A DNA stretch of 59,849 nucleotides, taken from positions 1 through 59,849 of the IMG/VR virus record IMGVR_UViG_3300027672_000013. One strand, written 5' to 3'. A program made the position numbers and the translations under genes. Positions 7,594 through 34,500 of this stretch are shown here, piece after piece (positions within the stretch are counted from its first letter, which is position 1; each line of letters opens with the position of its first letter). The DNA comes from a virus. Its lineage: Duplodnaviria; Caudoviricetes. Below the pieces are notes generated by a model. It had not been told where the DNA came from and searched no databases. It saw only the letters and a list, made by a program, of their open reading frames with translations.

Positions 7594-7816
7594 TGGTATA
7601 CGGGATATCACCCACCATTAAGCTGTGACCCGCATGTTTGTCAAAGTAGATGATGTCAGAATCTTTAATGCCATGTACGTCAGTACCCACAGTATTAACC
7701 TTTGCTTTCTTATAACGGAAGTCCCGTGTATCTTGAGAGGTAAGGATAAGACCTGACTGACTCTTTATCTCTTCAGAGATAGGAGTGATAGCTATGTACT
7801 TGCCAATTGGTTTCAT
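7559..7816 (-). CDS. groES: Co-chaperonin GroES-like
   Basis: MKPIGKYI...SQSGLIL...KVNTVG...IIRESDVV; overlaps the groEL stop. Confidence 0.9.
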   Translation of the reverse strand: MKPIGKYIAITPISEEIKSQSGLILTSQDTRDFRYKKAKVNTVGTDVHGIKDSDIIYFDKHAGHSLMVGDIPYTIIRESDVVIVE

Positions 7817-9450
7817 GACTGCTCATATGTTCGTGCCATGGTAATGATGGCGTTAGTACTTAGGATACTGACAGCTACAGACACCGCGTTCTGAAGAGCT
7901 ACCCGCGTAACTTTAAGTGGGTCGATAACTCCCATCTCAATGAGGTCACCATACTTAGCGTTCTTTACGTCAAAGCCGTGGCCCTCTTTAGTTACTAAAT
8001 TCATAGCCGTCTCATATACGTCAGCAAATGAACTACCCGCATTAATAATTATCTGACATACAGGAGAACACAACGCATCAGATAGAATAGTTGCAGCTAC
8101 AAGGTCCTCAGCTTTTTTATACTCCTCGTTCAAAAGCTTCATCTCAATTTTTTGATGCTCGTTATAAAGAGCGACACCTCCGCCCGGAAGGATACCCTCC
8201 TCCAAAGCAGAGCGTACCGCACATACCGCATCGTCAACACGGTCGAACAACTCCTTCTGCTCTAGGTCAGTATTGCCGCCTACACGAATAACACCGATAC
8301 CTCCCGTTAAAGAAGCAATGCGAGAAAGGATAAAGTCTTTGTCCTCTTTACGAGTAGCTAACTTAGCCGCTTCTTTAAGCTCGCTTACTCGCTTCTTTAC
8401 ACTGTCTACGTTAGAGTCATCCTCCTTTAAAATGATGGTTTGGTCTTGACCTACGATTACCTTCTTAGCAACACCTAAGTCGCTAGGTTTAATAAGACTT
8501 AAGTCATCGCCCGTAGCCTCAGAAAAATAAGTAGCCCCTAAACTTAACGCGATATCTTGCATCAACTCGTGCTGCTTGTATCCGAAGTTAGGAGGTTGGA
8601 TAGTACAAATCTTAACCTTCTGTTTCATAACGTTAGCTGCTAACGTGTTAGTGAGCTGCTGCGAACAAGGTGCTATAATTAAAAGCTTACGGTTCTTACT
8701 CGGCTCAACTACATGAGTTAATACCTTCTCGATAGAATGGATGTTGTCTATCTCAGCATCAGATACCAACACAAGGCAGTCGTCATAAACACACTCGTCC
8801 TTCTTGTGGTTGTTGATGAATAGAGGTGTAGCATAACCTCGGTCTACCTTGATGCCCGTCGTAGTCTCAAACGTAGTCTCGCTACCCTGACTCTTCTCTA
8901 CAGTAACCATACCCGTCTTGCCAACCTTGTTGTAAACGTCAGCAATTATCTTGCCCACAGCCTCGTCATTGTTAGAAGAGATAGTCGCAACGTCAAGCAT
9001 CATCTTCTTGGTTAAAGGACGTGAACGATTCTTGAGCGAATCAACCACCTCATTCGTCATAGATGTTAAGCTCCGAAGAACCATCGTGCGATTTAAAGAA
9101 AGGTTCTCAGAAAATAAAGAAGAGCCTGTAGTTACCAAAGCCTCAGTAAGAACAATAGCAGTAGTCGTGCCGTCACCCGCACTCGTAGCCGTGCGCTCAG
9201 CTGCCTCCTTCATCATGCGGACCGCTAAGTTCTCTACAGGGTCAACTAAGTCAACTGACTTGGCAACCGTAACGCCGTCCTTAGTAACAGTGATGCCGTG
9301 AGTGTGATGAGGAGATTCAATAAGAACAGTATTGCCGCTTGGCCCTAACGTACTCTTAACAGCTTGAGAGAGTTTAGTGATTCCCTCGATAAGACGAGAG
9401 CGACCATCGTCGCCAAATTTTAAGTCCTTAGGACTATAGCCTGCATTCAT
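7813..9450 (-). CDS. groEL: Chaperonin GroEL
   Basis: AVKSTLGP, VTKDGVTVAK, AGDGTTTA, GILPGGGVAL and GVIDPLKV motifs; 545 aa; no GGM tail. Confidence 0.97.
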   Translation of the reverse strand: MNAGYSPKDLKFGDDGRSRLIEGITKLSQAVKSTLGPSGNTVLIESPHHTHGITVTKDGVTVAKSVDLVDPVENLAVRMMKEAAERTATSAGDGTTTAIVLTEALVTTGSSLFSENLSLNRTMVLRSLTSMTNEVVDSLKNRSRPLTKKMMLDVATISSNNDEAVGKIIADVYNKVGKTGMVTVEKSQGSETTFETTTGIKVDRGYATPLFINNHKKDECVYDDCLVLVSDAEIDNIHSIEKVLTHVVEPSKNRKLLIIAPCSQQLTNTLAANVMKQKVKICTIQPPNFGYKQHELMQDIALSLGATYFSEATGDDLSLIKPSDLGVAKKVIVGQDQTIILKEDDSNVDSVKKRVSELKEAAKLATRKEDKDFILSRIASLTGGIGVIRVGGNTDLEQKELFDRVDDAVCAVRSALEEGILPGGGVALYNEHQKIEMKLLNEEYKKAEDLVAATILSDALCSPVCQIIINAGSSFADVYETAMNLVTKEGHGFDVKNAKYGDLIEMGVIDPLKVTRVALQNAVSVAVSILSTNAIITMARTYEQS

Positions 9451-10300: not shown

Positions 10301-10333
10301 GTGTTGAATTAGACAATAAATGCACTACATTTG
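10301..10333 (+). promoter_or_regulatory. Early promoter 1 with AATTAGACAAT box
   Basis: TTG, AATTAGACAAT (10307-10317), 8 nt, TACATTTG (10326-10333). Confidence 0.75.
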
Positions 10334-10380
10334 TGAAAGCGCTGAACGAACAAATGACCTCAGCAATTAATCTCTCTATC

Positions 10381-10530
10381 ATGAAAAAGACCTTCAACGA
10401 GTACGTAGCGGAACTGATGCAGAATCTCGATACGCTGAACAGCATGAACCTCACAGCAGAAGCGCGTGACCATGGAAAGAAGACCTTGGTGGATGCTTAC
10501 ATAATTATGATGGCCGAATCGCAATCATAA
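10381..10530 (+). CDS. Early hypothetical protein (49 aa)
   Basis: ATG 10381 preceded by AATCTCTCTATC. Confidence 0.7.
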   Translation: MKKTFNEYVAELMQNLDTLNSMNLTAEARDHGKKTLVDAYIIMMAESQS

Positions 10531-10555
10531 ACCTAACAAATCTAATCTCTCTCTC

Positions 10556-10876
10556 ATGACTAACTTCTATCAAACAACCCAACTCGCAGTCAGCCTTCAG
10601 GAAGCTTTCAACTGCTTACCTGCTGACGCAATGGACGAAGTAACAATGACCGAAGGTCTTATCGTTGTTCGCTTTTACAAGAGCATCGTCACTCCTTTCG
10701 TCATCAGCACTCTGTTGGACAAATCCACAATCAAGGATGAGTACAAGGTGACTAAATCTCAGATATTACGTGACCCTGATACGGGCTTGTCGTTTGTGAC
10801 TCTCACTGCTGATGAAGTGAAGGTGAACGTGATGTGGCACGCACATTCAAACCCATGGTTGATGTTGGAGGACTAA
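10556..10876 (+). CDS. Early hypothetical protein
   Basis: 106 aa; AATCTCTCTCTC-ATG leader. Confidence 0.8.
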   Translation: MTNFYQTTQLAVSLQEAFNCLPADAMDEVTMTEGLIVVRFYKSIVTPFVISTLLDKSTIKDEYKVTKSQILRDPDTGLSFVTLTADEVKVNVMWHAHSNPWLMLED

Positions 10877-10931
10877 TTCAGTTACACTGATGATGACCTG
10901 AATGGTCGAAACGCTGTGAAGCGTATGTAAC
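10876..10931 (+). ncRNA. Hammerhead ribozyme, type I (HHR1)
   Basis: Stem I GUUACA/UGUAAC; core CUGAUGA plus an extra U; stem II GACC-UGAAU-GGUC; GAAA; stem III ACGCU-GUGA-AGCGU; cleavage after GUA (10925); upstream AUUCA is complementary to loop II. Confidence 0.88.
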
Positions 10932-10966
10932 AAACCCGATGCACAATGCATCACAATCTCTCTCTC

Positions 10967-11611
10967 ATGAATAACTTAAACGAACTCGAAGTAGCCTACT
11001 TCACAGACTTCAACGCAAACGGCACGAAGGTGCAAGCGTATCTCAACACAAAGGAATCAGTCAAGCTGATGAAGAAGAAAGGCTTTGACTCTTCAGTAAA
11101 GATGTGGCATCAGGTGAATGCTCTATGGTCGCATTTCACATCGGACGAACAGAAAGCACAGCGCGTTGAATCAGGCATCGTCATGACATCCACCGACTTT
11201 ACAGCGAAGGTGCTTGGATATGCTGACAAAAGCGAGAAGAACCGAATGTGCCGAATCGCTGAGCGAATCAATGAGCACGCAGGCTTGCTGACTGCATACA
11301 AGCGTGAACGCACCCGACAGGAGAACGCAGGTGAAAGTGTTAAGCGTTCTGCGCAGGATTTCGACAAATGGTCGAAGGTCGTATGTGAGCAAATCGACAA
11401 AGGTGCTGACGTAGATGGTGCTGCCGAAGCGACGGGTGAAGCGGAATCACAGACTGCGAAGAAAGCGTTCCAAGTTCAGACCTTCGGTGTATCAAAGATG
11501 CGAGCTACCATCGATGAAAATGGAGTAGGCAATTTGAATGGTGCGAGCAAAGCTGATGTGCTTGCTACGTTGGATGCGGCACGAGCAATCTTCGAAGCGA
11601 TGGCTGACTAA
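10967..11611 (+). CDS. Early hypothetical protein between HHR1 and HHR2 (214 aa)
   Basis: Start moved to ATG 10967 after AATCTCTCTCTC; no family recognised. Confidence 0.85.
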   Translation: MNNLNELEVAYFTDFNANGTKVQAYLNTKESVKLMKKKGFDSSVKMWHQVNALWSHFTSDEQKAQRVESGIVMTSTDFTAKVLGYADKSEKNRMCRIAERINEHAGLLTAYKRERTRQENAGESVKRSAQDFDKWSKVVCEQIDKGADVDGAAEATGEAESQTAKKAFQVQTFGVSKMRATIDENGVGNLNGASKADVLATLDAARAIFEAMAD

Positions 11612-11618
11612 TCCAAAC

Positions 11619-11634
11619 GGGGGTTTGAACCCCC
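11619..11634. repeat. Dispersed palindrome copy
   Basis: GGGGGTTTGAACCCCC between the stop at 11611 and HHR2. Confidence 0.85.
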
Positions 11635-11636
11635 AC

Positions 11637-11690
11637 TTCAGTTACACCGATGAGTCCTGAATGGACGAAACGCTGCGAAGCGTCTGTAAC
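11637..11690 (+). ncRNA. Hammerhead ribozyme, type I (HHR2, U4C core variant)
   Basis: Stem I GUUACA/UGUAAC; core CCGAUGA; stem II GUCC-UGAAU-GGAC (compensatory change relative to HHR1); GAAA; stem III ACGCU-GCGA-AGCGU; cleavage after GUC (11684). Confidence 0.88.
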
Positions 11691-11703
11691 AAATCTCTCT
11701 CTC

Positions 11704-11775
11704 ATGACTACTGAAAATCTATACCGAATCTCAACCGCCATCCTTTGGATTGCATTCATACTTTCTCAGCTATGA
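11704..11775 (+). CDS. 23-aa hydrophobic peptide
   Basis: MTTENLYRISTAILWIAFILSQL; has the AATCTCTCTCTC leader and an ATGA overlap with the next gene. Confidence 0.7.
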   Translation: MTTENLYRISTAILWIAFILSQL

Positions 11776-12740
11776 TTAACTACCAACCTGATACCAACAG
11801 CGAACGCGCAGAAATGATGGGCTACCATCGTTCACCTTCGCCGCGCGACCTTCGCAAAGGTGCATCCATCTCAGATATCGCAGGCTTGCGTCCTGCGGAC
11901 AGGAACGCACTTAAGCAAACAGGACTGCTCAACATCGATGCGAAGTACGGCATCGGGTTTGAGATTGAAAAGACATCCTTTGCTCGCAATGCAGTTCAGA
12001 ACTTTCCTTTGTTCTCAGGATATGAGCGCGATGGTTCCTGCGGATATGAAGCCATCACCAACATCCTGCCTTTGCTACCTGCATCGGAATGGCGCAACAA
12101 AGTGTACTCGATGTTCCATCAGGCTGAGCGCATCTTGGATGACCAATGGTCACCATCTGATACACGATGCGGAGGTCACATCACCCTATCCTGCGAAGGC
12201 ATGACAGGACATGAGCTGATGGACAACATGAGACCTTACATGGGCATCGTTTTGAGTCTATATCGCAAACGTCTTCGGAACTCGTATTGCATGCACAATG
12301 TCAACCTCGCATCAACCTCCGAAAGAGCATTCCGAAGGATGCACAACAAGTACAATGTAGCTAAGGTCATGAACCATGCCATTGAGCTACGTGTTCCATC
12401 TCGCGTGACCTGTGTTGCCGACATGAAGCGCAGGTACGAACTGATGTATGTGTTGGTTGACTGCGCACGTCAATCGTTCGAAGGCAATGCACCGACATGG
12501 GCGAAGGCAATGTCACGCATCAAGCCAATCGTCTCACTCATGTACAAGGACGATGAGAAAGAGCAGAAGATTTGGTCAATCGCCAAAGGGATGCAGAAGT
12601 TCATCAAAATCGGTAAGATGGACTTTGAGCTGATGCCGTATCTCGACCCATACTCAGATGAGTCACCCGAATTCCGAACACGCAAGTGCCAACGAATGCT
12701 CGACGAAGGTGCGCGAGCATACAACCTGACGAGATTCTGA
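11772..12740 (+). CDS. Putative amidoligase (COOH-NH2 ligase fold, Amidoligase_2-like)
   Basis: GIGFEIE, RDGS, YEAIT, CGGHIT, KY and IELR motifs in the order typical of the family; start moved to ATG 11772. Confidence 0.75.
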   Translation: MINYQPDTNSERAEMMGYHRSPSPRDLRKGASISDIAGLRPADRNALKQTGLLNIDAKYGIGFEIEKTSFARNAVQNFPLFSGYERDGSCGYEAITNILPLLPASEWRNKVYSMFHQAERILDDQWSPSDTRCGGHITLSCEGMTGHELMDNMRPYMGIVLSLYRKRLRNSYCMHNVNLASTSERAFRRMHNKYNVAKVMNHAIELRVPSRVTCVADMKRRYELMYVLVDCARQSFEGNAPTWAKAMSRIKPIVSLMYKDDEKEQKIWSIAKGMQKFIKIGKMDFELMPYLDPYSDESPEFRTRKCQRMLDEGARAYNLTRF

Positions 12741-12741
12741 T

Positions 12742-12767
12742 GGGGTGGGGGTTTGAACCCCCACTCC
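12742..12767. repeat. Dispersed palindrome copy
   Basis: GGGGTGGGGGTTTGAACCCCCACTCC between the stop at 12740 and HHR3. Confidence 0.85.
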
Positions 12768-12821
12768 GCTGTCGGGCGATGTGTATCGCTCCTGATGATG
12801 ACTCAAAAGAGTCGAAACAGC
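12768..12821 (+). ncRNA. Hammerhead ribozyme, type III (HHR3)
   Basis: Stem III GCUGU/ACAGC; cleavage after GUC (12773); stem I GGGCGAU-GUGU-AUCGCUC; CUGAUGA plus an extra U; stem II GACUC-AAAA-GAGUC; GAAA. Confidence 0.9.
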
Positions 12822-12860
12822 AAACCAATAAACGGGTGATGACCTACCATCAAAAGCCTT

Positions 12861-13103
12861 ATGAACTATCTACAATCGTTGCACTATGCTCTCGAAGCTG
12901 TCCAATCCAAAGTGCGTCCTAATGACGCATTGAACTCCGAAGCATCCCGATTTAGGAACGAAATCGAAGGTGCTCTTGCCTTCGCTGTTATCGCTGAGAT
13001 TAAGAGGTCGCAACCTTTCGCTCCGAATCGGACGTTAACTGCGGATGAGGTAGACACGATGGTTTCAGATGCCTATGCGAATCTCCCAAGCTTCAACTGC
13101 TAG
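12861..13103 (+). CDS. Early hypothetical protein
   Basis: 80-aa ORF following HHR3. Confidence 0.75.
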   Translation: MNYLQSLHYALEAVQSKVRPNDALNSEASRFRNEIEGALAFAVIAEIKRSQPFAPNRTLTADEVDTMVSDAYANLPSFNC

Positions 13104-13140: not shown

Positions 13141-13172
13141 TTTGGAATTAGACAATGTCTTCACTATATTTG
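13141..13172 (+). promoter_or_regulatory. Early promoter 2 with AATTAGACAAT box
   Basis: TTTG (13141), AATTAGACAAT (13146-13156), 8 nt, TATATTTG (13165-13172); a close match to the Bacteroidota -33/-7 consensus. Confidence 0.8.
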
Positions 13173-13225
13173 TACCATCATTAACACGGAGCGCACCTAA
13201 GCTCTTCACAATCTCTCTCTCAATC

Positions 13226-13448: not shown

Positions 13449-13463
13449 TTATCTCTCTCTCTC

Positions 13464-15362: not shown

Positions 15363-16400
15363 ATGTGCGTAATCATCATCAAACAACAGGCTGACCAAGC
15401 CATTGACCATCACATCATTCGTGCATCAGCACGTATCAACCCTCATGGATTGGGAGTGACATGGCTTGACACATTCGAAACAGAATACCTTAACTCATCA
15501 GACTATGAGGTGCTAAGTATCAACCGACCTTTCATTGCACACTTCAGGTATGCTACGATTGGAGATATCAATGAGCACAATATGCACCCCTTCGTATGCG
15601 GTAACAACAAAGACGAACTGCTCATGATGAACGGAACCATCAAGGGGTTAGGCAACAAGACTGACTGCGACAGTCGGGTGCTTGCACATATGCTTGGCGA
15701 CATTGACCGAGCAGATTGGAAGGACGTACTTGAGCAACACGACTGCCGATTTACAACCATCAACACGAAGACCCGCACGTTCGAGCTGTACAATGAATCC
15801 ATGTGGCACACACACAAGGGAGTCATGTACTCTAAAGCCAACGTGTTATTCAAGCATGACATAGCGGTGTATGGAACACTTAAGAAAGGACACGGCAACT
15901 ACCATAGGTTTCTTGCACAAGCAGAGTTTGTAGGTGCAGGCATCACGCAAGACAAGTACCCTTTGCTTATCGACGGGCTACCCTACCTGCTACCTGAGAA
16001 GGGAGTCGGACATCGCGTAGAGATGCATGTCTTCCGAGTGACAGACGATATGCTTCAGGAGATAGACCATCTAGAGGGACATCCCAATTGGTACGTTCGT
16101 AAGCGAGTAGCTGTTCATGTAGGTAGCGATACCTTCCATGCATGGACGTACTTCAATCCAAAGAAACGAACGGCAAATGATGTGATGCATTCAACATTCA
16201 CCTCACCTAAACCAACGCCTTTGGTTTACGTAGATGCAGATGACGATGAGACCCTACCCTTTGAAGAGGAGGAAGGAACCTATTGCATCGATTGCTATGG
16301 CAACGTGACTAAGGATGAGTCACCCTTTGATACATATACCTGTACCAATTGTCACTCTACATTTGAAGCTCATATCCTTGACCAATACAAATTATTCTAA
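15363..16400 (+). CDS. Class II glutamine amidotransferase fused to gamma-glutamylcyclotransferase (AIG2-like) and a Zn ribbon
   Basis: N-terminal Cys2, NPHGLG, HFRYAT, HPF, NGTI and DS motifs; then VYGTLKKG...IDHLEGHP..Y; C-terminal CIDC...CTNC. Confidence 0.85.
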   Translation: MCVIIIKQQADQAIDHHIIRASARINPHGLGVTWLDTFETEYLNSSDYEVLSINRPFIAHFRYATIGDINEHNMHPFVCGNNKDELLMMNGTIKGLGNKTDCDSRVLAHMLGDIDRADWKDVLEQHDCRFTTINTKTRTFELYNESMWHTHKGVMYSKANVLFKHDIAVYGTLKKGHGNYHRFLAQAEFVGAGITQDKYPLLIDGLPYLLPEKGVGHRVEMHVFRVTDDMLQEIDHLEGHPNWYVRKRVAVHVGSDTFHAWTYFNPKKRTANDVMHSTFTSPKPTPLVYVDADDDETLPFEEEEGTYCIDCYGNVTKDESPFDTYTCTNCHSTFEAHILDQYKLF

Positions 16401-18900: not shown

Positions 18901-19628
18901 GCAACGTCATTGAACTACTCAAGGACGACTCAAATTATTACGGGGCTATTGGAAGGCAGTACTTATCTAACTCAGATATAGGTATACTGCTTTCCAACCC
19001 TAAAGAATTTGGCAAGTCCAAGGAAGACAACATCAACTTCTCTAAGGGCAGGTTGTTTCATCAGTCTATCCTTGAACCTGACAAGGCGAAAGACTTTGTT
19101 CATGTAGACACGAATGTTAGAAGCACTAAGGTTTATAAACAATTCCTTATTGATAACGATGTACCATTCGCTATGCTGACGAAAGAGTATCATGAGATAC
19201 TCGAATCAGTTGACACGATGATAGCTCATTGGGATTTCTTTTCTATGATAAGAAAGGATGGTGCTATCTATGAACAGCCCGCTGTTAAGGAGATACATGG
19301 TAGGATGTGGAAGGGTAAGGCTGACATCGTAACTGACACTCATGTCTATGACCTCAAGACAACGAGTAACATCCATGACTTCAAGTGGTCTGCTCGCAAG
19401 TACAACTACGACAGCCAAGCGTTTATATATGAGACGTTGTTTGGTAAGAGGATGGAGTTCCTTGTCATCGATAAGCCATCAGGATTACTCGGTCACTTCA
19501 CAGCGTCCGATGAGTTCCTCAGTAGAGGGGAAGAGAAAGTAAGGAGAGCTATAGAGATACACGATAAGTTCTTTATCGATAATCCTGTAGAAGACATTGA
19601 TGATTACTACATCAAGGATGTTTTATAA
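18897..19628 (+). CDS. PD-(D/E)XK exonuclease (RecE/DUF3799-like)
   Basis: LSNS, G.LFH..ILEP, KGKAD, DLKTT and YNYDSQA motifs. Confidence 0.8.
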   Translation: MSNVIELLKDDSNYYGAIGRQYLSNSDIGILLSNPKEFGKSKEDNINFSKGRLFHQSILEPDKAKDFVHVDTNVRSTKVYKQFLIDNDVPFAMLTKEYHEILESVDTMIAHWDFFSMIRKDGAIYEQPAVKEIHGRMWKGKADIVTDTHVYDLKTTSNIHDFKWSARKYNYDSQAFIYETLFGKRMEFLVIDKPSGLLGHFTASDEFLSRGEEKVRRAIEIHDKFFIDNPVEDIDDYYIKDVL

Positions 19629-25501: not shown

Positions 25502-25538
25502 AAGCCCTCCGTTTCTTGTTGCGGGGGGCTTTTTTTAT
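25502..25538. terminator. Probable bidirectional terminator
   Basis: AAGCCCTCCG...CGGGGGGCTT followed by TTTTATT, between convergent blocks. Confidence 0.65.
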
Positions 25539-28500
25539 TCACTAGGAAGTCGGTCATACTTCCTTTTATTCTCCCTTTCTTTCTCCCTTTCCTTCTTACG
25601 TTCTTTTGCAGGATTAGAACTGCGAGCCTCCTTTTCTTCCTTCTTCTTTTTTCTCTCATCCTTCTTATCCTTCTCCCTCTGCCCTTTCGTACTTAAGATT
25701 CCATCTTCAATATAGTTAGGTCGGCTACTACCCCCGATACCCATTGCCTCATAGAAGGATTCCATTGCTAAGATATCCTCATCGGTTCCCTCTATCATCT
25801 CTTCTGTAAACTCAAACAAACCTATGAAGTTGTTTACGTCACCTCTCACCGCAACGCTAAGCCCTGTTTTTAAAGCTGCTAGTGCTCCGTCTTTTCCCGT
25901 CTCTACATCTTTGAAGTTTCGTGTCAAGCCCTTGACAGGAGTTACGCCTTGCTCTCCCAAACGGAACCCATCTCCCATCATCCAACTAGCTACTCCCTCA
26001 GCGGCGCTTCCGAGGATAGGTATAAAGGATAGCAGGTTAAATCCCGCTGCAGCCAACATCAACTTTTTGTATACCTCTTCTCTATCCTCGTCATCCCCCG
26101 ACCATAACTTACCAAAGTTACCTGCTGCGGTAAAGAGAACGTTGGCTCCTGCAAAGTTCATATAGAACTTACGAACGTCCTTCAGCTTAGGAGCTTTTCT
26201 TTTACCTACATCACGACTTATGTTGATACCTGACTGCACAACGTTGTTAATCATTAGCATAGGAGCTGTTCCAAACATAGTTAACAGAGCTGTGTATGCA
26301 GATTGGTTCTGCATCATAACGCTTCTGTCAGCAGGGTTTCTACTTTGTTGTGATGAGTTATACTCTTCAAACTTTTCGATAGCTGTCTCGGTATCCATAC
26401 CGTTGATTATGTTACGGCGATAGTTTGCCATATACCCTAACACTCCCGCTATGTCACCCACCATAGTACCAAAGGCTGAGCCGCGCTCATTGAATCTCAT
26501 AAGGCTTCCCAATATTCCTTTCTTTCGGATAGCGGGGGTTGACTTTGTTCCGGTTTCAAGCCCTACGATATCACCCTTTACCCCTTGCTCTAAACGATGT
26601 CGGAACGAAGGAGAGTTTTCTTTGGCGAACTTAACATACTTCCTCCCTTGAGCTAAGACTATAGCGAAGTCTCCTAACCAAAGAAGTAAATCCGCACCCG
26701 GAATTCTCTTACCGTCTTTTCTAAAAGTGTAATCAGGGATAGCTAATACAGCAGAGGTAGCTTGCTTAACTATTTGAACAGCTTTCCACCCTAAAGCAAT
26801 CCCAACGAATACTGATGAAAGCAGAGATAAAGCTTTGTCATTATAGATAGCGTTCTTTCCTGAGTTAGGATTGATAGCTTGATTGATAGACTGTCTAACC
26901 AAATTACTTGTACCTGTCATATCCAAAGCTGTCTTCACAGCTTCGTTAGTCATGATGGAATTAAGAGTCCGTGTGTCAGCAGCGAAAGCCTTGAACCTTT
27001 CCATGGATTGGAAGTGGTCTTCTAGTGCTGTAGTAAATGCAGCGTTGTCAAGTATAATCTCGTTGTCTGTATCAACACGTTCTTTCAATGCATTGGCAAA
27101 CTCAGCATCAAAGATTCCCATGAAGTCTCCTCCTTCCAACAGGTTTACATCTGTTCCATTGGCTATCGTTTGAGTAGGGAAGTAGTTAGATATGTAGTTT
27201 AGATTAACATCGTTTACCTCGCGGTATACATTGTTTATCCCCTCGTAATAATCATTGCTTAGATAGTTGACAGTCTCGTCCACAAAGGACATCATGTCTT
27301 GGCCTAAGAAGTTTTCTATTTTAGCAGCAGTAATAGGGTCATCGAAATCTATACCCATACGCGCAAGCTTATCACGTTGAACAGGGTTCTTAGATAAAGC
27401 ATAGATACGCATGACCGCATCCTTAGTAAAGTTTTCTTCTCGTGTAGCAAGATTTGAATTCTTATCCTGCTTCCCTCTAATCCTAGTAATGTTATCTAGC
27501 GTAAGCTCATCCGCTGAGTATATCTCTCGACGCATAAGCTTATAGCTTTCGAACCCATACTTCTGAGCCATAGCATCCATAGAATCTATTTGATTGTAGT
27601 ACCCCTTAAGGTATCTGCTCTCTGCTCGATTCAGTCTATTATAAACCTCCCTCTTCATCTCAGGACCTAAGGTCTCCATGAATGTACCAAGGTGTAGAAC
27701 ACCTCGAACGGCAGACTTAATGACATCACTTACATTGCTACTTGTAAAAGCTTTTACATAAGTCTTAGATGCCAATATCATCTTCTTCCCACGCTCATTA
27801 AATCCTTTACCGTTTCCGGAACGCCATATCTTTCTAGCTTCTTTAAGCTTAGCGTTGAATTCGTTTTTGTTCAGTGGTTGCCCGTCTGAATTAAAGAAGC
27901 TAGGGAATAGTTGTTTGAGCTGAGCTGTTATCCCTTGGTTTATTTTAGCATTAGCCTCGGCCCGTGTAGCCCTTGTCTGAGCAAGGATAGTACGCTCCGC
28001 TAATTGACCATCTTTATACTCCTTGAATATCTCCTTGACCTGCTCAAGAGACATGTCATTGATACCTTGGAACTCTTGGAGAGCCATAGATTTTAATACA
28101 ATCCTCCTCTCCTTAGTCGTAAGGTTGTCAAATCCCTGCAAGGAATTCTTCTCGATAGCTTTAACGGCTTCCTCTGTCTCAAGTGAAACACGTATCTCAT
28201 CTAGTGCTGCCTGTCTCTTGACAGGGTCTGCTATAGTAGCGGCACTTAACACCTTGGTTAACTCAGCTGCAAACGCCTGAGCGTCTGCGCCTAACCTACC
28301 TCTCCGTGCTTTCTTACCTGAAGAAGATGACTTGCCTTTCTTTGCATCAGACTTAACCTCACTAGCCAATTTGCTGATGAGCTTATTCTTTATCTTCTTA
28401 TTCTGAATCTCTACCTGACCTAGCACATACTCCATGTCAGCAAGCAAGCTTGACTCTGTAGCTTTAGCCACTCGGTTTACAAGACGATTGATTTGCCCTT

Positions 28501-31500
28501 GACTATAGATGCCTGACTTAGGCATGTTGTCTCTAATAAACTTAGAAAGGACTCGTTTGGATTGCATCAAAGTCTGCGCTCCCTTTCGTCGTTGCTTTAT
28601 GTTATTACGAATAGCGCTTATCTCCTGAGATATATCTCTGTTAGCTTTGATGTTCATGCTCTTGTCAAGAGCTACAGTAAGCTGCTCCTGTACCTCAACA
28701 GATTGAGATTGGAACACAGGATTAGCCCTTAATAATTCAAGTGCTTTAGCTCTAACCTTTGAGAAGGATGGGTTCGCAGAGGAGTCGGCAAAAGCCTCTA
28801 CCTGACTGTATACATCGGCGTAGATATCTTTACCCACGTTCATACCACCATCTACGTTACCAAACTCTACAGGAACTGTAGGGCTAAACAAGTCAATCAC
28901 CTCAGACATAGACGCATCAATGGCTTCTGCGGTATACCCCCTATCCATAAGTAACTTCCTAATTGCTGCATCAGCATAGCCATTCTGTCTACCAAAAGAA
29001 ATGGTATCGTTCATAGACATAGACCCATTGTCTGTCCCTGTCATGAACTGTATATCTTCCGATAGTCCTACCTCTTGTGCTTCAGCAAACAGCTCATTCT
29101 GTGAGAGCAGGTCAACCACTACAGCTTGAGCGAATTCGTCAAGCGTTAAGTTTTGTAATTGTTCAGAGCTTAGGTCAGATATGCCGGTAAGCTCTTTGAT
29201 GAAGTTGAATAAATCGGTAAGCCAATTCTTAAAGTTTCTCTTCTCTGCTGCCTTAGTAAAGGACTCACCCTTATTACCAATAGCTAGTGCCAATGCCTCC
29301 TCGCGGATATAGGTATTTATTTCCTGAGGACTAGACCCATCCTTCTTCATCTGCTTAATGACACGCTGATAGTTTTTACTATCCTTTACCTGTTGCACGT
29401 ATGGTGAATCATCGGGAACTAAATCCATACCAACTTGATATGCTTCAGAGTTTAATGCCTTAGCGGTGTTCAGCCATATGTGACCGAACTCGTGGATAGG
29501 AGTGTTGTAGTTTTCAAGAGACGGGTTTAGGTATACCTTTCCCTCTGACACTACACCATAAATCTTTTGGTCTTTAGTGGTTAGCTTATTAGAGTACGCA
29601 TCTTTTATCAAAGCTTTGAACTCTGCCGCGTCAGTGACTACTTCAACTCCGGGGAATGAAGCGCTCAGTCTAGAAAGAAACTGTTCATAGTTAGTCTTGG
29701 TAGAAGGGGCTACACGCGATGATGTACCTGCCGTCATCATAGCAGAGCGCATCTCAGCAGCGCGAGCCTCTTTGGAGGTGGCCGCCTTGCCCTCTTTAAA
29801 AGCTTTTATTGTCCCGTAGTTATTGGTTATAAACCTTCTGATATTTTTTACATCAGTAACCCTACTCTTACTAGCTATAGCTTGACCTGCCTTATTGTAT
29901 ATGTCTACCGTTCGTGTGCCGTCAGTGTTAGTTACTACCCTAACATCAAGCGTCCTTCCTTTGTCATCTAAGACAGTGTACTTATCTCGTTTAGTTATTC
30001 TCTGAGTAACCTTTTGATTAATCTTTTCTAATGAGCTAGGCAGTACGTTCCAAAACGGAACGGTATCCTCAAGCAATCCAACCGCAGCACCTCGAATATA
30101 TATAGGATAGTTCGTGTGACTTGGAACATCCTCAGATTGTTGCTGCTCCTCGGTCATCATGAAGTCCCTCCAATTTTTATTGTTAGGGCCAAGAAGTTCC
30201 GGAGTTACTTTCCTTCCCTGAGCATCCCTTACCTCAAGCACCATAGTTAACGCTCCCATAGGAAGCCCCTCCGTAAACTGCTCAATGTTAGCAGCTCGGA
30301 TGCTCTCCATAGTAGCTCCTATCTCCTTGAGTTTAACATGAATATCAACCTTGCTTTGGACTTGGTCCGTAGGGAATAGGTTGGTTATAATATCAGCCCT
30401 TAGGTCTGTTCCAAGTTTATCTATGTTAATAAGGAACTCTTCAATGGTTGCGGATTCAATAGCATCTTGAGCTTTCTTATTGTCAGCAGGTTTAGTTCCA
30501 TACTTCCTGCCTTTAAGATATTCTTTGGCTTGCTCAAAAAGCTCTTGACTATTCTCTTGCTGAGAAATAAGGTCCATCGCATAACGAGCGGTAACCATAT
30601 TAGAATCCAAGGCACTTGGTTTCATGTTGTAGACTACAGTGTAGTCACCCTTAGATGCCCCAATAATAATTCTCTTAGCTGCTTCCTCATCGATAGATGC
30701 CCATGCTACCTTACCGAAGATGCCTTCTTGCAAAGCGAAGAACGGACCGCCCATACGGAATTCATCAACCTTTAGTTGGTCAGCCATCGCTAGGTTTACG
30801 CTCGTGTCATATAACTCCGAAAGCGGAATCCTACGCACCTTACTTACAAGCTCTCCATTTTCGGTAACAACAATCGGAACGCTTACCATAGTAGTTTCCT
30901 CTACAGTAAAGTCGTTCTCCGCTAACTCAGGTGATACCTCGTTCAATAACTTGGTGGCCTCTCTTACTTCTTTATCTGTAACACCAAAGCCATTCGTATC
31001 CTTTTCAATTTGGAAATTCCTTTGAGTAGAGGTATCAAACTTGGAGAAAGAAGAAGCCGTAGAGTAATCCGCAGGCATCGTCTTGCTATCGGGGTCTGCG
31101 TTTCGACGCACAATTTTAACGCGTTCTATAAGCGCGTCTTTAACCATGGATTTTTGAGAAGGGTTAAGCTTAGTGGCTGACTCAAATGCAATAGCTACAT
31201 AGCCGGGCCTGCCGTCTTCGTCCTTAATTACACCTTCCCCACCCTCGTACATTATGTAGTAATACTTTCCATCTACAGTTTTTTCAACAAAATCCTCCCT
31301 GTAATTCTCCCTAGGTCTCTCCCTGTCAAGGCTAAGATTAACCTGTTCTCCCTCTGTAAAAGACTCTAGCCCATTGCGAGTTCCATAAGCAAAGAACTTA
31401 CCTGCATTTACAGGACCCATCAGCTGCTGTCGCTCCTCAGCTCTTCGCTCTTCGGGGCTGACTTGAGCTTGCCGTTCTTTAGCTGCAGCCAAACGACGAA

Positions 31501-34500
31501 TTTTACCTTCAGACCACTGAGTGATAGCTCTGCCATATGCTTCTTGTGTTGCAAAGTCTGACTCTTGCAATGGGAACTGCTCAGCAGCTATCTCTTCAGC
31601 TGTATTCCCTTCTTGTCTAGATGCCAAAAGCTCAGCCTCAATCTCGGTAGCTGTTTGCTCAGGGGCGGGGGTTTGAACCCCCGCTTCAGCGGCTGCTTCT
31701 GTAACGGCCTGTCGATTCTGAGGGCTGAGCAGTTGGTCAGCCAACTCGGTAGGCGTTACGGTTGCTGTAGTTTCATTAACCGCTGCAGGCGCAACCTCAG
31801 GTAGTGGTTGGTTAAACTTATTGGCAAAGGATTTGAACTCTTCTAAGGAAACCCTTCCCTCTATCATCGCATTAAAAACATCGCTAAAAATTCCTTGGTC
31901 TCCATCTGAAATTGCCAAACGAAGGCTTCTTCCCCCCGCTCTAGACTGAGTTCTCCCCAATGGTATATCAGCACCTATTTTTCTAAGCGCACGAGTGACC
32001 GTGGCTGTCGGGGAATCTCCACTTATTACTGTTCGAATAATCTTCTGTATAGCAAAAAAGTCGTATCCCTCTGCTGCTAGTTCCTTTTTTCTTTTCTGAA
32101 TTTTAGGTGGGTACCCCGGTACCATCCCGTCATTTACAGGTGCAGCCTCTTCTACTACAGGAGCGGCCTCTTCTACTACTGCTTCAGGCGCAGCCTCTTC
32201 GACTCCTGCTAATTCATTTATCTGTCGCAACTGCTCTTCAGTAGCAGGAAACTTTCCGTCCGGTAGTGCAAACTTTGGAATACCGTTGCCTTGTCTTACG
32301 GACTTAGCGGCTTGTACGATTCTCCTCTTTGATTTAATCTCCTTAAGTTCAGCAGCTTCTTGTACGCCCAAGGCAGCAAGGGCAGCGGTATTAGCGGGTG
32401 AATCCTTACGCCTTTTAATTTTTGCTCGTTCTTTTTTAAATCTGTTTTTTAATTCTACTGCTTTTCTCTCGTACCTATTGAGTTCGAACGTCATCTCATC
32501 ATCAGTAAGCCGTTCGGTTGGAGCTGCTTCTTCCTGAACTACAGGCGCAGCTGCCTCTTCTACCGCGACTTCTTCTACTACAGGCGCAGCCTCCTCAACA
32601 GGAGCAGCCTCCTCAACTACAGGCTCAGGAGCAAACAATCCCTCACCAATTTCTTGAGATAAAGCCTCAGCCTCTGCGTTAACTGCAGCTTCCTCACTAG
32701 CTACTACTTCTTTCTGAAACTTGGTAAGCTTCTTACCATCAGCCTTTCTCTTCTCTATACCTGCCACGATACCATTAAGCCTTACCGGGTCAATGGTGCC
32801 GTTTCTAAATGCGTTTACGTCTGAACGTATAGGCTTGTCGATAGCCTCTACTACTTCCTCTTGAGCAATTTCTTCCGCAGCTTGGTCTTCGGCTTGAGTC
32901 TGCTCGGTAGCTTCGTCTGTTGCGGGTACTCCTTCTCCCACCTCTGCGCTATCTGTGGTTGGTTCTTGTGTAAGTACCTCCTCTGTGCTTGGCTCTTGAA
33001 TGGCATCTTCAGTATCTATAGTTGGTGTAACATTAAACGCCTCAACATCCCCGACTTCTATCCCTGTATTAACCGCATCAGTAACATCTACATCTTCACT
33101 AACCTCAGATAAAAGCCCTTCTACTAACGATGCTGTTTGAGAGTCGTTTGTTATTTGAGCATTGTCAGCTATACGCCTAAGTCTACGTGGGCTTGCATCC
33201 TCTATGTAAGAAAGGAACTGCTTCTTTGTCATCATCGTTCTTCCCACACGATAAGACGGTACTCCCTTCCTTCCGTACCCTGCAATATTCAAAGACGATA
33301 TATCTATAGCGCCTTCAACCACATCTCCCGTCTCGGATATGGTTCTAATCTCTGCATTGATATCAGCTATCGTGCCTTGAAAAACTTCCCTACGGCTGTT
33401 GGTAGATGACAGCCCATCACGAACTGCCATTAGTTCCATGAGCCTAGCCCTAGCCTTACCGCTGTTAGAGGAGGATACATCTAACAAATCATTTGCCTCT
33501 CTTCGTAGACCTACGTTCTCAAGGACACGCTGCCCCTGCTCAGCGTCTATCTTACCTAAACGAACCATGTTGTCAGTCCATCGCTGAATCTGAGTATCAC
33601 TTGAACCATCCAAGGCCATGGTTTCGGTATTCATAAACTCGTTAGCAAGACGGAGATTGTTATTTCCCATAGTTTGTCGTGCTATAGTAGCTGCGGCATT
33701 AGCCCCTTGGCTACCTATAGAACCTAAGCTCTCAGCAAGCACCTCCTTACCATCTATCTCATCGCCCACAGAGAGCATAGCCAATGCTTCACCCGCGCCT
33801 TCTGCTGCAGGGTCAAATATAAATCTCTCAAGAGTATAAGAAGCCACCTTAGCGCCCTTGCTTGCCGCTAAAGCAGGCTTGAATACCTTACCCGCCATTC
33901 CTCCTGCTATAAAATCCATAGCAGCGATTGTAATTCCACGCTTAAACCCCCTCTCTTTTCCTTCAGCCCATACCTTCTCGTCCCTCAATGCAAGAAACAT
34001 TTGTTCAGGGTTAGTAGCATCGTAGCCAAAGCTTCCCGCTGCTTCTAATAGCGCATTAGTATACTCCAATATAAAGGAGTTAACTGACATGCCCGTCCTT
34101 ACCCCATATCCGAAACCTGTAACGGCACCGGGTAAAGCGCCCACACCAAAAGCTGATACACCAACACCTGCTCCAACAGCGGTTCCTGAAAGTGTAGTTC
34201 CTGCAAGAATCTCTGCGCCATATGGAAGTACCTGAGCTAGGGAAGAACCCATAAAAGTAAGGGCAACTTCTGCAGGGTTATTTCTTAAAGCCCTTCGAAT
34301 CTCAGGTCCTGTACGTGCGTTATTATATCGACTCAATCCACGGGATTGATTTAAACTTTTTGATTCGTTAATCTGAATCATCTCAACAACAGCATCCATC
34401 AATGCCTTGTCATCCTCTACGTCAATACTTCCTGTAGCAAGCTTTAATAATACCTCAGCTCCCTCCCCTGTCTTTATACCATTACTCCACTCAACTTCAA

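Follow-up and report, generated by a model that had tools for sequence, protein, structure and literature searches.

We analysed a window of 59,849 nucleotides that spans the whole of the IMG/VR virus record IMGVR_UViG_3300027672_000013 (Duplodnaviria; Caudoviricetes), a genome that is 99% complete by CheckV and hence complete or near-complete, and concentrated on three hammerhead ribozyme motifs, HHR1, HHR2 and HHR3, which lie at gene junctions in its first early gene block. This block is encoded on the plus strand and comprises orf1 (49 amino acids (aa), 10381-10530), which has no match in PHROG, Pfam or NCBIfam; orf2 (106 aa, 10556-10876) and orf3 (214 aa, 10967-11611, with an alternative ATG at 10946), neither belonging to a known family; a 23-codon hydrophobic open reading frame (ORF; MTTENLYRISTAILWIAFILSQL, 11704-11775); a conserved early gene of 322 aa (11772-12740), the ATG of which overlaps the stop of the small ORF as ATGA; and orf5 (80 aa, 12861-13103), the last gene before the next promoter-like motif. 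HHR1 stands between orf2 and orf3, HHR2 between orf3 and the small ORF, and HHR3 between the 322-aa gene and orf5.

HHR1 (10881-10931, or 10877-10931 with a 5' UUCA included) and HHR2 (11641-11690) are of type I and HHR3 (12768-12821) is of type III, all on the plus strand. They begin 4 nt past the stop codon of orf2 (TAA, 10874-10876), 29 nt past that of orf3 (TAA, 11609-11611) and 27 nt past that of the 322-aa gene (TGA, 12738-12740), respectively. In HHR1, stem I (10881-10886 paired with 10926-10931) leads into the core CUGAUGA (10887-10893), stem II (GACC/GGUC), GAAA and stem III (CGCU/AGCG); its triplet is GUA and the cut is predicted after 10925. HHR2 has stem II GUCC/GGAC, the triplet GUC and a predicted cut after 11684, and HHR3 has stem III GCUG/CAGC, a stem I of 7 bp, stem II GACUC/GAGUC, the triplet GUC and a predicted cut after 12773. 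A preliminary description of this DNA, made from its letters, had already placed three complete hammerheads here, on the sense strand and each past a stop codon, and had pointed to a compensatory change in stem II between HHR1 and HHR2; all of this held when examined by descriptor, folding, relatives and covariation, the stem II change being a swap of A-U to U-A.

The descriptor covered all three topologies and tolerated one optional base following A9; in its relaxed form, position 4 was also left free. In strict form it matched the window twice (HHR1 and HHR3) and in relaxed form three times (HHR2 being added), always on the plus strand within 2 kb and never on the minus strand. Minimum free energy (MFE) and centroid folds (ViennaRNA) reproduced the exact three-way junction for HHR1, HHR2 and HHR3 and were unchanged when upstream hairpins were included; no competing alternative fold appeared in the MFE predictions of the three window copies. 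We also used two covariance models, R1, for which 11 type I copies were used with HHR1 and HHR2 among them, and R2, built from 10 type III copies with the window excluded. R1 matched only HHR1 and HHR2 in the window, two of the copies from which it was made, while R2, which had not seen HHR3, scored it at 55.0 bits (E 6.6e-13, a rough figure, as covariance-model E-values are by the tool's own statement), the next match in the window reaching 13 bits. One could argue, from the small size of the hammerhead consensus and the absence of matches at Rfam thresholds, that chance alone produced the motifs. We regard the probability of this as negligible, given that 200 dinucleotide-preserving shuffles produced 7 strict and 22 relaxed matches in total (0.035 and 0.11 per window, against the 2 and 3 observed), that R2 finds HHR3 independently, and that covariation extends across the family of related phages described below. 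A stretch of 22 nt within the exonuclease gene (19494-19515) resembles the 5' part of HHR2 (73%, repeat D5), and R1 finds no ribozyme there.

Single-protein queries with orf3 and the 322-aa protein recovered no relatives in viral contigs. A search anchored on GroEL gave 80 related loci totalling 1.16 Mb, designated here by L numbers. The descriptor made 64 matches in these loci, six of which, more than 75 nt long with minimal stems and located on one strand or the other, were taken for chance-type matches and excluded ahead of all counts. Together, the descriptor and the two covariance models identified 63 hammerheads in 29 of the 80 loci, a proportion that understates their prevalence since the loci are fragments and the absence of a ribozyme from one locus is weak evidence; of the 25 loci that extend 8 kb or more on the early side, 19 carry a hammerhead. 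All 63 lie 1.4-6.2 kb from the start of GroEL on the strand of the early operon, opposite to GroEL, exactly as in the window, with 379 kb of the scanned sequence on the early side versus 781 kb on the other. The relatives thus corroborate the three motifs. Types I, II and III all occur among the relatives and copy number ranges from 0 to 6. In the metagenome contigs L094 (1444-4299) and L088 (1411-4055), up to six type I copies are packed into 2.9 kb, so that nearly every small early gene is followed by one. A canonical, unannotated type III hammerhead is present in the cultured Flavobacterium phage vB_FspP_elemoF_6-3D (NC_055853.1, 17866-17920, minus strand; seen in L085), located 17 nt before the ATG of gp59, the first early gene of this phage. 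A weak type I candidate in the same genome (16042-16108, 34.8 bits) has a stem II that is broken by eye and was not counted; it is overlapped on the opposite strand by the annotated 35-aa gp66 (16030-16137, plus strand; seen in L085), a gene that may be spurious.

The alignments of these copies provided evidence of selection on the fold. In a hand-checked alignment of 11 type I sequences, 100% of stem cells are paired and 9 of 15 pairs have changed on both sides. For 36 type I model matches (31 distinct) the figures are 98.3% and 13 of 15, in an alignment that is model-fitted and leans to structure, and for 10 type III sequences, the window excluded, they are 98.8% and 10 of 16. When the 3' partners were slid by 1-3 columns as a control, only 20-39% of cells were paired in all three alignments. 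The rebuilt alignments leave out L080 (type I) and the type III copies with an extra U, which were misaligned by MAFFT. The NUH rule for the cleavage triplet is kept in 54 of 54 distinct copies (GUC in 42, GUA in 8, AUC in 2, CUA in 1 and UUA in 1). We conclude that the motifs truly belong to the hammerhead family and that purifying selection maintains their fold and core.

The UUCA upstream of stem I, for which the preliminary description had proposed pairing with loop II in HHR1 and HHR2, is also present, loop II being UGAAU. The window copies could form 4-5 bp of this putative UUCA/UGAA pseudoknot, with one extra base in HHR1. Among the 11 aligned type I sequences, the three pairs nearest stem I can form in 11, 9 and 9 rows, respectively, and covary, while the fourth forms in 2. 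Across 46 distinct type I copies the mean run was 2.0 bp and 15 copies reach 3 bp; permuted flanks matched this in 0 of 2000 trials, a comparison in which related copies share both partners.

The surroundings of the ribozymes are also constrained. Outside any ATG-initiated ORF of at least 40 aa lie 62 of 66 copies, and the four exceptions, HHR3 included, are in short ORFs of spurious look that overlap hairpins. Type I copies begin at or a few bases from the upstream stop codon (most gaps from -10 to +6 nt), and the distance from the cut to the next ATG with 20 or more open codons is 19-33 nt in 31 of 32 distinct copies. Type III copies are typically preceded by a strong hairpin: the 36 nt upstream fold at -8 kcal/mol or lower (median -18) in 16 of 20 distinct copies, compared with 57 of 500 windows drawn at random from the same regions and with 4 of 31 type I copies. 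In one type I subgroup, stem III is 11-13 bp long and, by eye, contains the gene-end hairpin sequence of that phage. In the window, a gene-end hairpin with the sequence GGGGGUUUGAACCCCC is predicted by folding at 11619-11634 (plus strand), 6 nt upstream of HHR2, and an 11-bp hairpin with a GGGGGUUUGAACCCCC core (12742-12767, plus strand) adjoins stem III of HHR3 without a spacer; the region 12738-12824 folds at -42.8 kcal/mol (z -5.9). The hairpin belongs to a near-palindromic family, GGGGGTTYRAACCCCC, with the same GGGGGUUUGAACCCCC core, that occurs at 13 sites in the window (715, 3494, 10095, 11619, 12747, 13429, 15249, 17015, 18260, 20093, 25419, 31667 and 48823), giving 26 strand matches versus 0.15 expected. 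It is found mostly just past genes and mostly without a T-run, and a separate version, GTCCGTTNNAACGGAC, belongs to other phage subgroups. The hairpin may act either as a terminator or as a protector of RNA 3' ends.

Comparison with the closest relatives, L006 and L008, suggests that the three ribozymes differ in age. The HHR2 hairpin and HHR2, the 322-aa gene, and the HHR3 hairpin and HHR3 are collinear with both of these loci, which also hold DNA homologous to orf3, while the segment 10400-10955 (orf1, orf2, HHR1 and the repeated leader) is an insertion relative to them; orf2 has no counterpart in either. More widely, a homologue of the 322-aa protein is present in 20 of the 80 loci, and in 14 of these a hammerhead follows within 200 nt downstream, 13 of them being type III; of the six loci without one, three are cut by the locus end. 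A hammerhead lies within 250 nt upstream of the homologue in 9 of the 20 loci. The downstream hammerhead persists at 33-72% protein identity. Because the type III copy is syntenic and HHR1 lies inside an insertion specific to the window, we take the former to be an old, conserved element and HHR1 to be the newcomer. This reverses the suggestion of the preliminary description that the HHR3 position had been filled independently. Between orf1 and orf2 (10534-10565), the leader usually found after type I ribozymes occurs by itself, as though its ribozyme had been lost or a cassette inserted through recombination between ribozyme-leader repeats.

These features of mobility bear on a reading in which the hammerheads are selfish or structural repeats that spread with cassettes and serve as recombination joints, with cleavage bringing no benefit to expression. 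Copies within one genome can be nearly identical (HHR1 and HHR2 share 92% over 38 nt, repeat family D8), orf1, orf2 and HHR1 entered together with a repeated leader, the genes between ribozymes vary, and some relatives have no copy at all. However, core and pairing have been kept through many compensatory changes, where neutral repeats would decay; strand, intergenic placement and distance to the start codon are tightly constrained; and the type III copy after the ligase-like 322-aa gene persists to 33% protein identity. We therefore consider selfish spread unlikely as the whole explanation.

The ribozyme-bearing junctions appear to belong to a single transcription unit. A promoter-like repeat (D2, 5 copies) precedes the first early gene block at 10302-10345 (plus strand), and its exact core, TAGACAAT-N6-ACTAYNTTT, is found at 10310, 13149 and 15309, with none expected in shuffles. 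The repeat contains TAcaTTTG (TAnnTTTG), which would be a Bacteroidota -7 type element; a scan for sigma-70 promoters did no better than in shuffles. The next copy of the repeat (13141-13184, plus strand) probably marks the start of a second transcription unit. Because the motif recurs at both ends and is absent, on reading the sequence, from all three gaps that bear a ribozyme, the first transcription unit most likely extends from about 10340 to about 13140. The preliminary description had a promoter ahead of the first transcript, and a promoter-like motif (10310-10332, with its exact recurrences at 13149 and 15309) does lie there. It had further placed the ribozymes at consecutive gene boundaries; they do sit at gene junctions of one unit, but these are not all of its junctions, with no ribozyme at the 10530/10556 junction or at the 11775/11772 overlap. 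The early genes have no Shine-Dalgarno sequence and instead carry a CU-rich leader, ATCTCTCTCTCATG (6 matches versus 0.67 expected), at 10370, 10545, 10956, 11693, 13211 and 13453. Three metatranscriptome runs contained next to no sequence words from this DNA.

Taken together, the arrangement points to processing of the early polycistronic RNA by ribozyme cleavage, a reading to which we assign a probability of about 0.75 and under which the splitting of the early transcript into separate mRNAs would be the most economical account. Each ribozyme would fold and cut itself during transcription, after 10925, 11684 and 12773, yielding an orf1-orf2 RNA, an orf3 RNA, an RNA with the small ORF (its start 19 nt past the HHR2 cut) and the 322-aa gene, and an orf5 RNA. 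At type I sites nearly the whole ribozyme would stay on the upstream RNA, giving it a structured 3' end that carries a 2',3'-cyclic phosphate, and a 5'-OH followed by a short leader (about 19-41 nt) would open the downstream RNA. At the type III site the upstream RNA would end in a strong hairpin plus about 6 nt and a cyclic phosphate, with the downstream RNA beginning with a 5'-OH and the compact ribozyme body. The likely benefit would be a protein-free uncoupling of neighbouring early genes in stability and translation, with the cut providing a defined, context-free region for translation to start in a host that apparently does without Shine-Dalgarno pairing.

More tentatively, the hairpin-plus-hammerhead modules might be viewed as protein-free punctuation in a family of Flavobacteriia phages, with self-cleavage in the place of the RNase III sites of phage T7. 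Cleavage would then be needed for early expression and not just tolerated, the 5'-OH leader of 19-33 nt at type I sites would enable initiation without a Shine-Dalgarno sequence, the hairpin and cyclic phosphate would cap the upstream mRNA, and the ribozyme-leader units would be the joints at which early cassettes are swapped. We would rate this fuller scheme as doubtful, at odds well below those of cleavage itself.

Cleavage need not be constitutive. It could be conditional, with the hairpin, a ribosome on the preceding gene or Mg2+ modulating folding, so that the elements would serve as timers, or would switch expression between a coupled and an uncoupled mode. The upstream stop codon of many type I copies lies within stem I or immediately before it, so that a terminating ribosome would cover this stem, and the non-consensus cores in the window could tune the rate. 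On the other hand, the sequence demands nothing of the kind, the MFE folds offer no competitor, and cleavage during transcription is usual for natural hammerheads that have tertiary contacts. Such regulation seems to us improbable. We attach still less weight to the idea that two cuts release an RNA with a 5'-OH and a 2',3'-cyclic phosphate that is circularised or spliced by a host RtcB-type ligase. The end chemistry would suit RtcB, and the 322-aa gene is bracketed by ribozymes in the 9 of 20 loci noted above, but the two ends would come from different ribozymes of different topology without complementarity, and no RNA ligase, RtcB or kinase family was found among the 30 window proteins scanned against PHROGs. 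Moreover, the passages of an earlier survey that address this point report that spliced or circular products were sought and none found (Perreault 2011, PMC3088659). Circularisation is therefore very unlikely, and we retain processing into separate linear mRNAs as the preferred reading.

A number of observations weigh against this reading. Hammerheads are missing from six of the 25 loci whose early flanks are long, and no convincing one was found in the uncultured podophage MW202828.1, in which a single minimal descriptor match of 138 nt lies inside a gene and has no model match. Because of MW202828.1 and these six loci, the elements appear to be dispensable. The consensus core comprises C3-U4-G5-A6-N7-G8-A9, G12-A13-A14, an A15.1-U16.1 pair and, at the cut, an H17 that is any base but G. 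All three window copies depart from it: in HHR1 and HHR3 every core base is present but one additional U separates A9 from G10.1 (10894 and 12799, respectively), and the core of HHR2 is CCGAUGA, a C replacing U4 at base 11648. When ten metagenome contigs were matched by the HHR2 pattern allowing C or T, all had T at position 4. Rfam at its gathering thresholds gave no match in the window; in E-value mode only HHR2 was matched, by RF00163 at 28.7 bits versus a cut-off of 34, and RF00008 did not match HHR3. The survey that described hammerheads in prophages records, in the parts concerned with activity, that 4 of 18 consensus hammerheads tested were inactive in vitro and that the U4C change considerably lowers in vitro activity (Perreault 2011, PMC3088659). 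Finally, any specific benefit to stability or translation is something we infer purely, with about half the confidence that we give to processing.

The departures from consensus are of two kinds. An extra base at the same place in the core is tolerated in a chrysanthemum viroid hammerhead. The extra-U form recurs in type III copies of L044 and L053, with the same stem II and different stems I and III, and in type I copies of L090, L092 and L095 with different stems II and III, and because it recurs in relatives with changed stems we regard it as a maintained variant. The C at position 4 of HHR2 is a different matter. With position 4 relaxed in the descriptor, it was seen in none of the 63 hammerheads of the relatives; six of the ten metagenome contigs with a T correspond to the 50 nt of HHR2 exactly except at this position, and the exact HHR2 pattern had no match in viral contigs. 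Nor did blastn of the single ribozymes against GenBank phages return a match.

This substitution raises the possibility that only two of the three ribozymes work. HHR2 would then have been disabled recently by U4C, leaving orf3 and the 322-aa gene on one RNA, or the C would be a sequencing or assembly error and the real HHR2 canonical. Its uniqueness and the lower in vitro activity recorded for U4C speak for this. Yet all stems and the remaining core are intact, so that any decay would be one step old, and a viroid hammerhead with the same U4C change is described, in the corresponding passage of the same survey, as retaining enough activity in vivo for infectivity (Perreault 2011, PMC3088659). 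On balance we think it possible, though well short of an even chance, that HHR2 is out of action or misread; from its sequence it may be attenuated, crippled, newly disabled or an assembly miscall, and would possibly cut more slowly.

The low Rfam scores are shared by the relatives. The Rfam hammerhead models are the best families for the relatives' copies, which lie just below threshold: a type III copy in L006 scores 47.0 bits versus a cut-off of 48.5, a type I copy in L046 33.5 versus 34, and a type I copy in L006 29.9 versus 34. No match was obtained at gathering thresholds in eight relatives' loci (145 kb). The Rfam check suggested in the preliminary description was thus negative at these thresholds, with HHR2 matched below them. 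The fold of the window copies and, apart from the departures described, their core are those of RF00163 (Hammerhead_1) and RF00008 (Hammerhead_3), with scores below the cut-off. A gathering cut-off is an annotation criterion, not a biochemical one, and routine threshold-based annotation with Rfam overlooks the whole set of hammerheads.

Comparable strategies are known from other systems. In phage T7, RNase III cuts the early polycistronic RNA at gene boundaries and leaves the upstream mRNAs with hairpin 3' ends. That system differs in using a host protein and double-stranded sites, whereas the RNA considered here would cut itself to 5'-OH and cyclic phosphate ends, and the likeness is one of analogy only. 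In synthetic insulators of the RiboJ type, a hammerhead placed before the coding region removes upstream RNA and fixes the context of translation start; these are engineered, while the elements in the window would also set the 3' terminus of the mRNA upstream of them. The closest precedents are natural. According to the sections of Perreault 2011 (PMC3088659) that deal with prophages, multiple hammerheads often flank individual genes or small gene groups, and they are proposed to divide long transcripts of the phage into mRNAs the length of an operon or a gene. In vitro, cleavage was seen for three tandem arrangements, and in E. coli for the triple set of Agrobacterium tumefaciens; a pseudoknot joining stems I and II is probably used by about 40% of hammerheads (Perreault 2011, PMC3088659). 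The window resembles the clusters described there, such as the triple set around ardA in A. tumefaciens, in its mixed-topology, sense-strand hammerheads flanking phage genes, in the variable genes between the ribozymes and in the proposed role; pseudoknots between loop II and the flank of stem I are also described there. It has three coding-strand copies in 2 kb between consecutive promoter-like motifs, and relatives have as many as six in 2.9 kb. Clustered phage hammerheads were described in 2011, together with cleaving triple sets and the same role, and the window is not the undescribed system that the preliminary description had taken it for (Perreault 2011, PMC3088659). The number of hammerheads in its phage family is unusual.

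There are also differences from the clusters as they are described in that source. The elements here belong to a whole family of lytic-type phages of about 60 kb related to the genus Elemovirus, not to scattered prophages, and they occupy the first early operon, are accompanied by a phage-specific gene-end hairpin and include one copy that is syntenic with a ligase-like gene. Another precedent in the same work is the HHphage variant of the haloviruses HF1 and HF2, an early-region hammerhead of a lytic virus that lies 13 nt before an early helicase gene and for which a mapped 5' end falls within 3 nt of the cut; unlike the window, these viruses have a single copy with a core insertion near C3, an archaeal host and salt-dependent activity, as far as the account given there goes (Perreault 2011, PMC3088659). 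We found no literature linking hammerheads to Flavobacterium or Bacteroidota phage genomes, and the supplementary alignments of Perreault 2011 may already hold members of the family. A 2019 review states, in the passage on this subject, that the purpose of hammerheads suggested to process polycistronic transcripts needs more work (PMC6765202).

No new mechanism is revealed by these results, and what is gained is a rich natural data set. New are a whole Elemovirus-related phage family in which modules of hairpin plus ribozyme are conserved, the constant spacing between a cut and the start codon that follows, and a cultured member, vB_FspP_elemoF_6-3D, in which genetics could address the role of the elements. 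The data set comprises dozens of related phages with 1-6 ribozymes each and all three topologies at equivalent junctions, along with the conserved hairpin partner, the fixed start-codon distance and one conserved gene bracketed by ribozymes.

This bracketed gene, the 322-aa early gene between HHR2 and HHR3, encodes a protein with 257 homologues, none of which has a Pfam family and many of which are on contigs of about 58-63 kb. Its AlphaFold2 model is of high confidence (predicted local distance difference test 92.1, predicted template modelling score 0.90). In a Foldseek search of the PDB, all 27 of the 27 rows listed were glutamine synthetase, GmaS (gamma-glutamylmethylamide synthetase), PafA/Dop or YbdK-type ligases, with weak scores (best E 3.8e-4, template modelling scores 0.2-0.36), and on this basis the predicted fold resembles carboxylate-amine ligases of the glutamine synthetase type. 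In the Atlas, Amidoligase_2 is assigned to 12% of one look-alike cluster of the protein; this Pfam family was confirmed neither by hmmscan of 32 family members nor by a profile search of PDB sequences, and we did not adopt the assignment. A gene 2.6 kb downstream (15363-16397, 345 aa) combines a class-II amidotransferase-like stretch with a gamma-glutamyl cyclotransferase domain, and genes of this type travel with amidoligases in phages. From the structural model and these domains, the 322-aa and 345-aa proteins together look like a phage amidoligase system. No relation was detectable between the 322-aa and 321-aa early proteins.

The window also encodes GroEL (7813-9450, minus strand), a GroES-like protein, a protein of 3598 aa, a primase/helicase, a Sak-like annealing protein and an exonuclease. 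To the counterpart in MW202828.1, whose genome is 60.8 kb, the primase-like protein shows 63% identity, and to those of Flavobacterium phages of the genus Elemovirus 39% over one third of its length; the remaining matches with a named host are Bacteroidota phages, with a few records lacking a host name. Elemovirus and the window have in common GroEL/GroES genes, a giant structural protein and genome size. Judged by this gene content, the source of the window would be a podophage of about 60 kb related to Elemovirus, most likely one infecting Flavobacteriia. The sole family match of the 3598-aa protein (25535-36331, minus strand) is DUF6861; in MW202828.1 and Elemovirus, the corresponding proteins carry a structural annotation. 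Among the early genes, those at 13463 and 17154 begin with MTT in a manner similar to the 23-codon ORF downstream of HHR2 (repeat D10).

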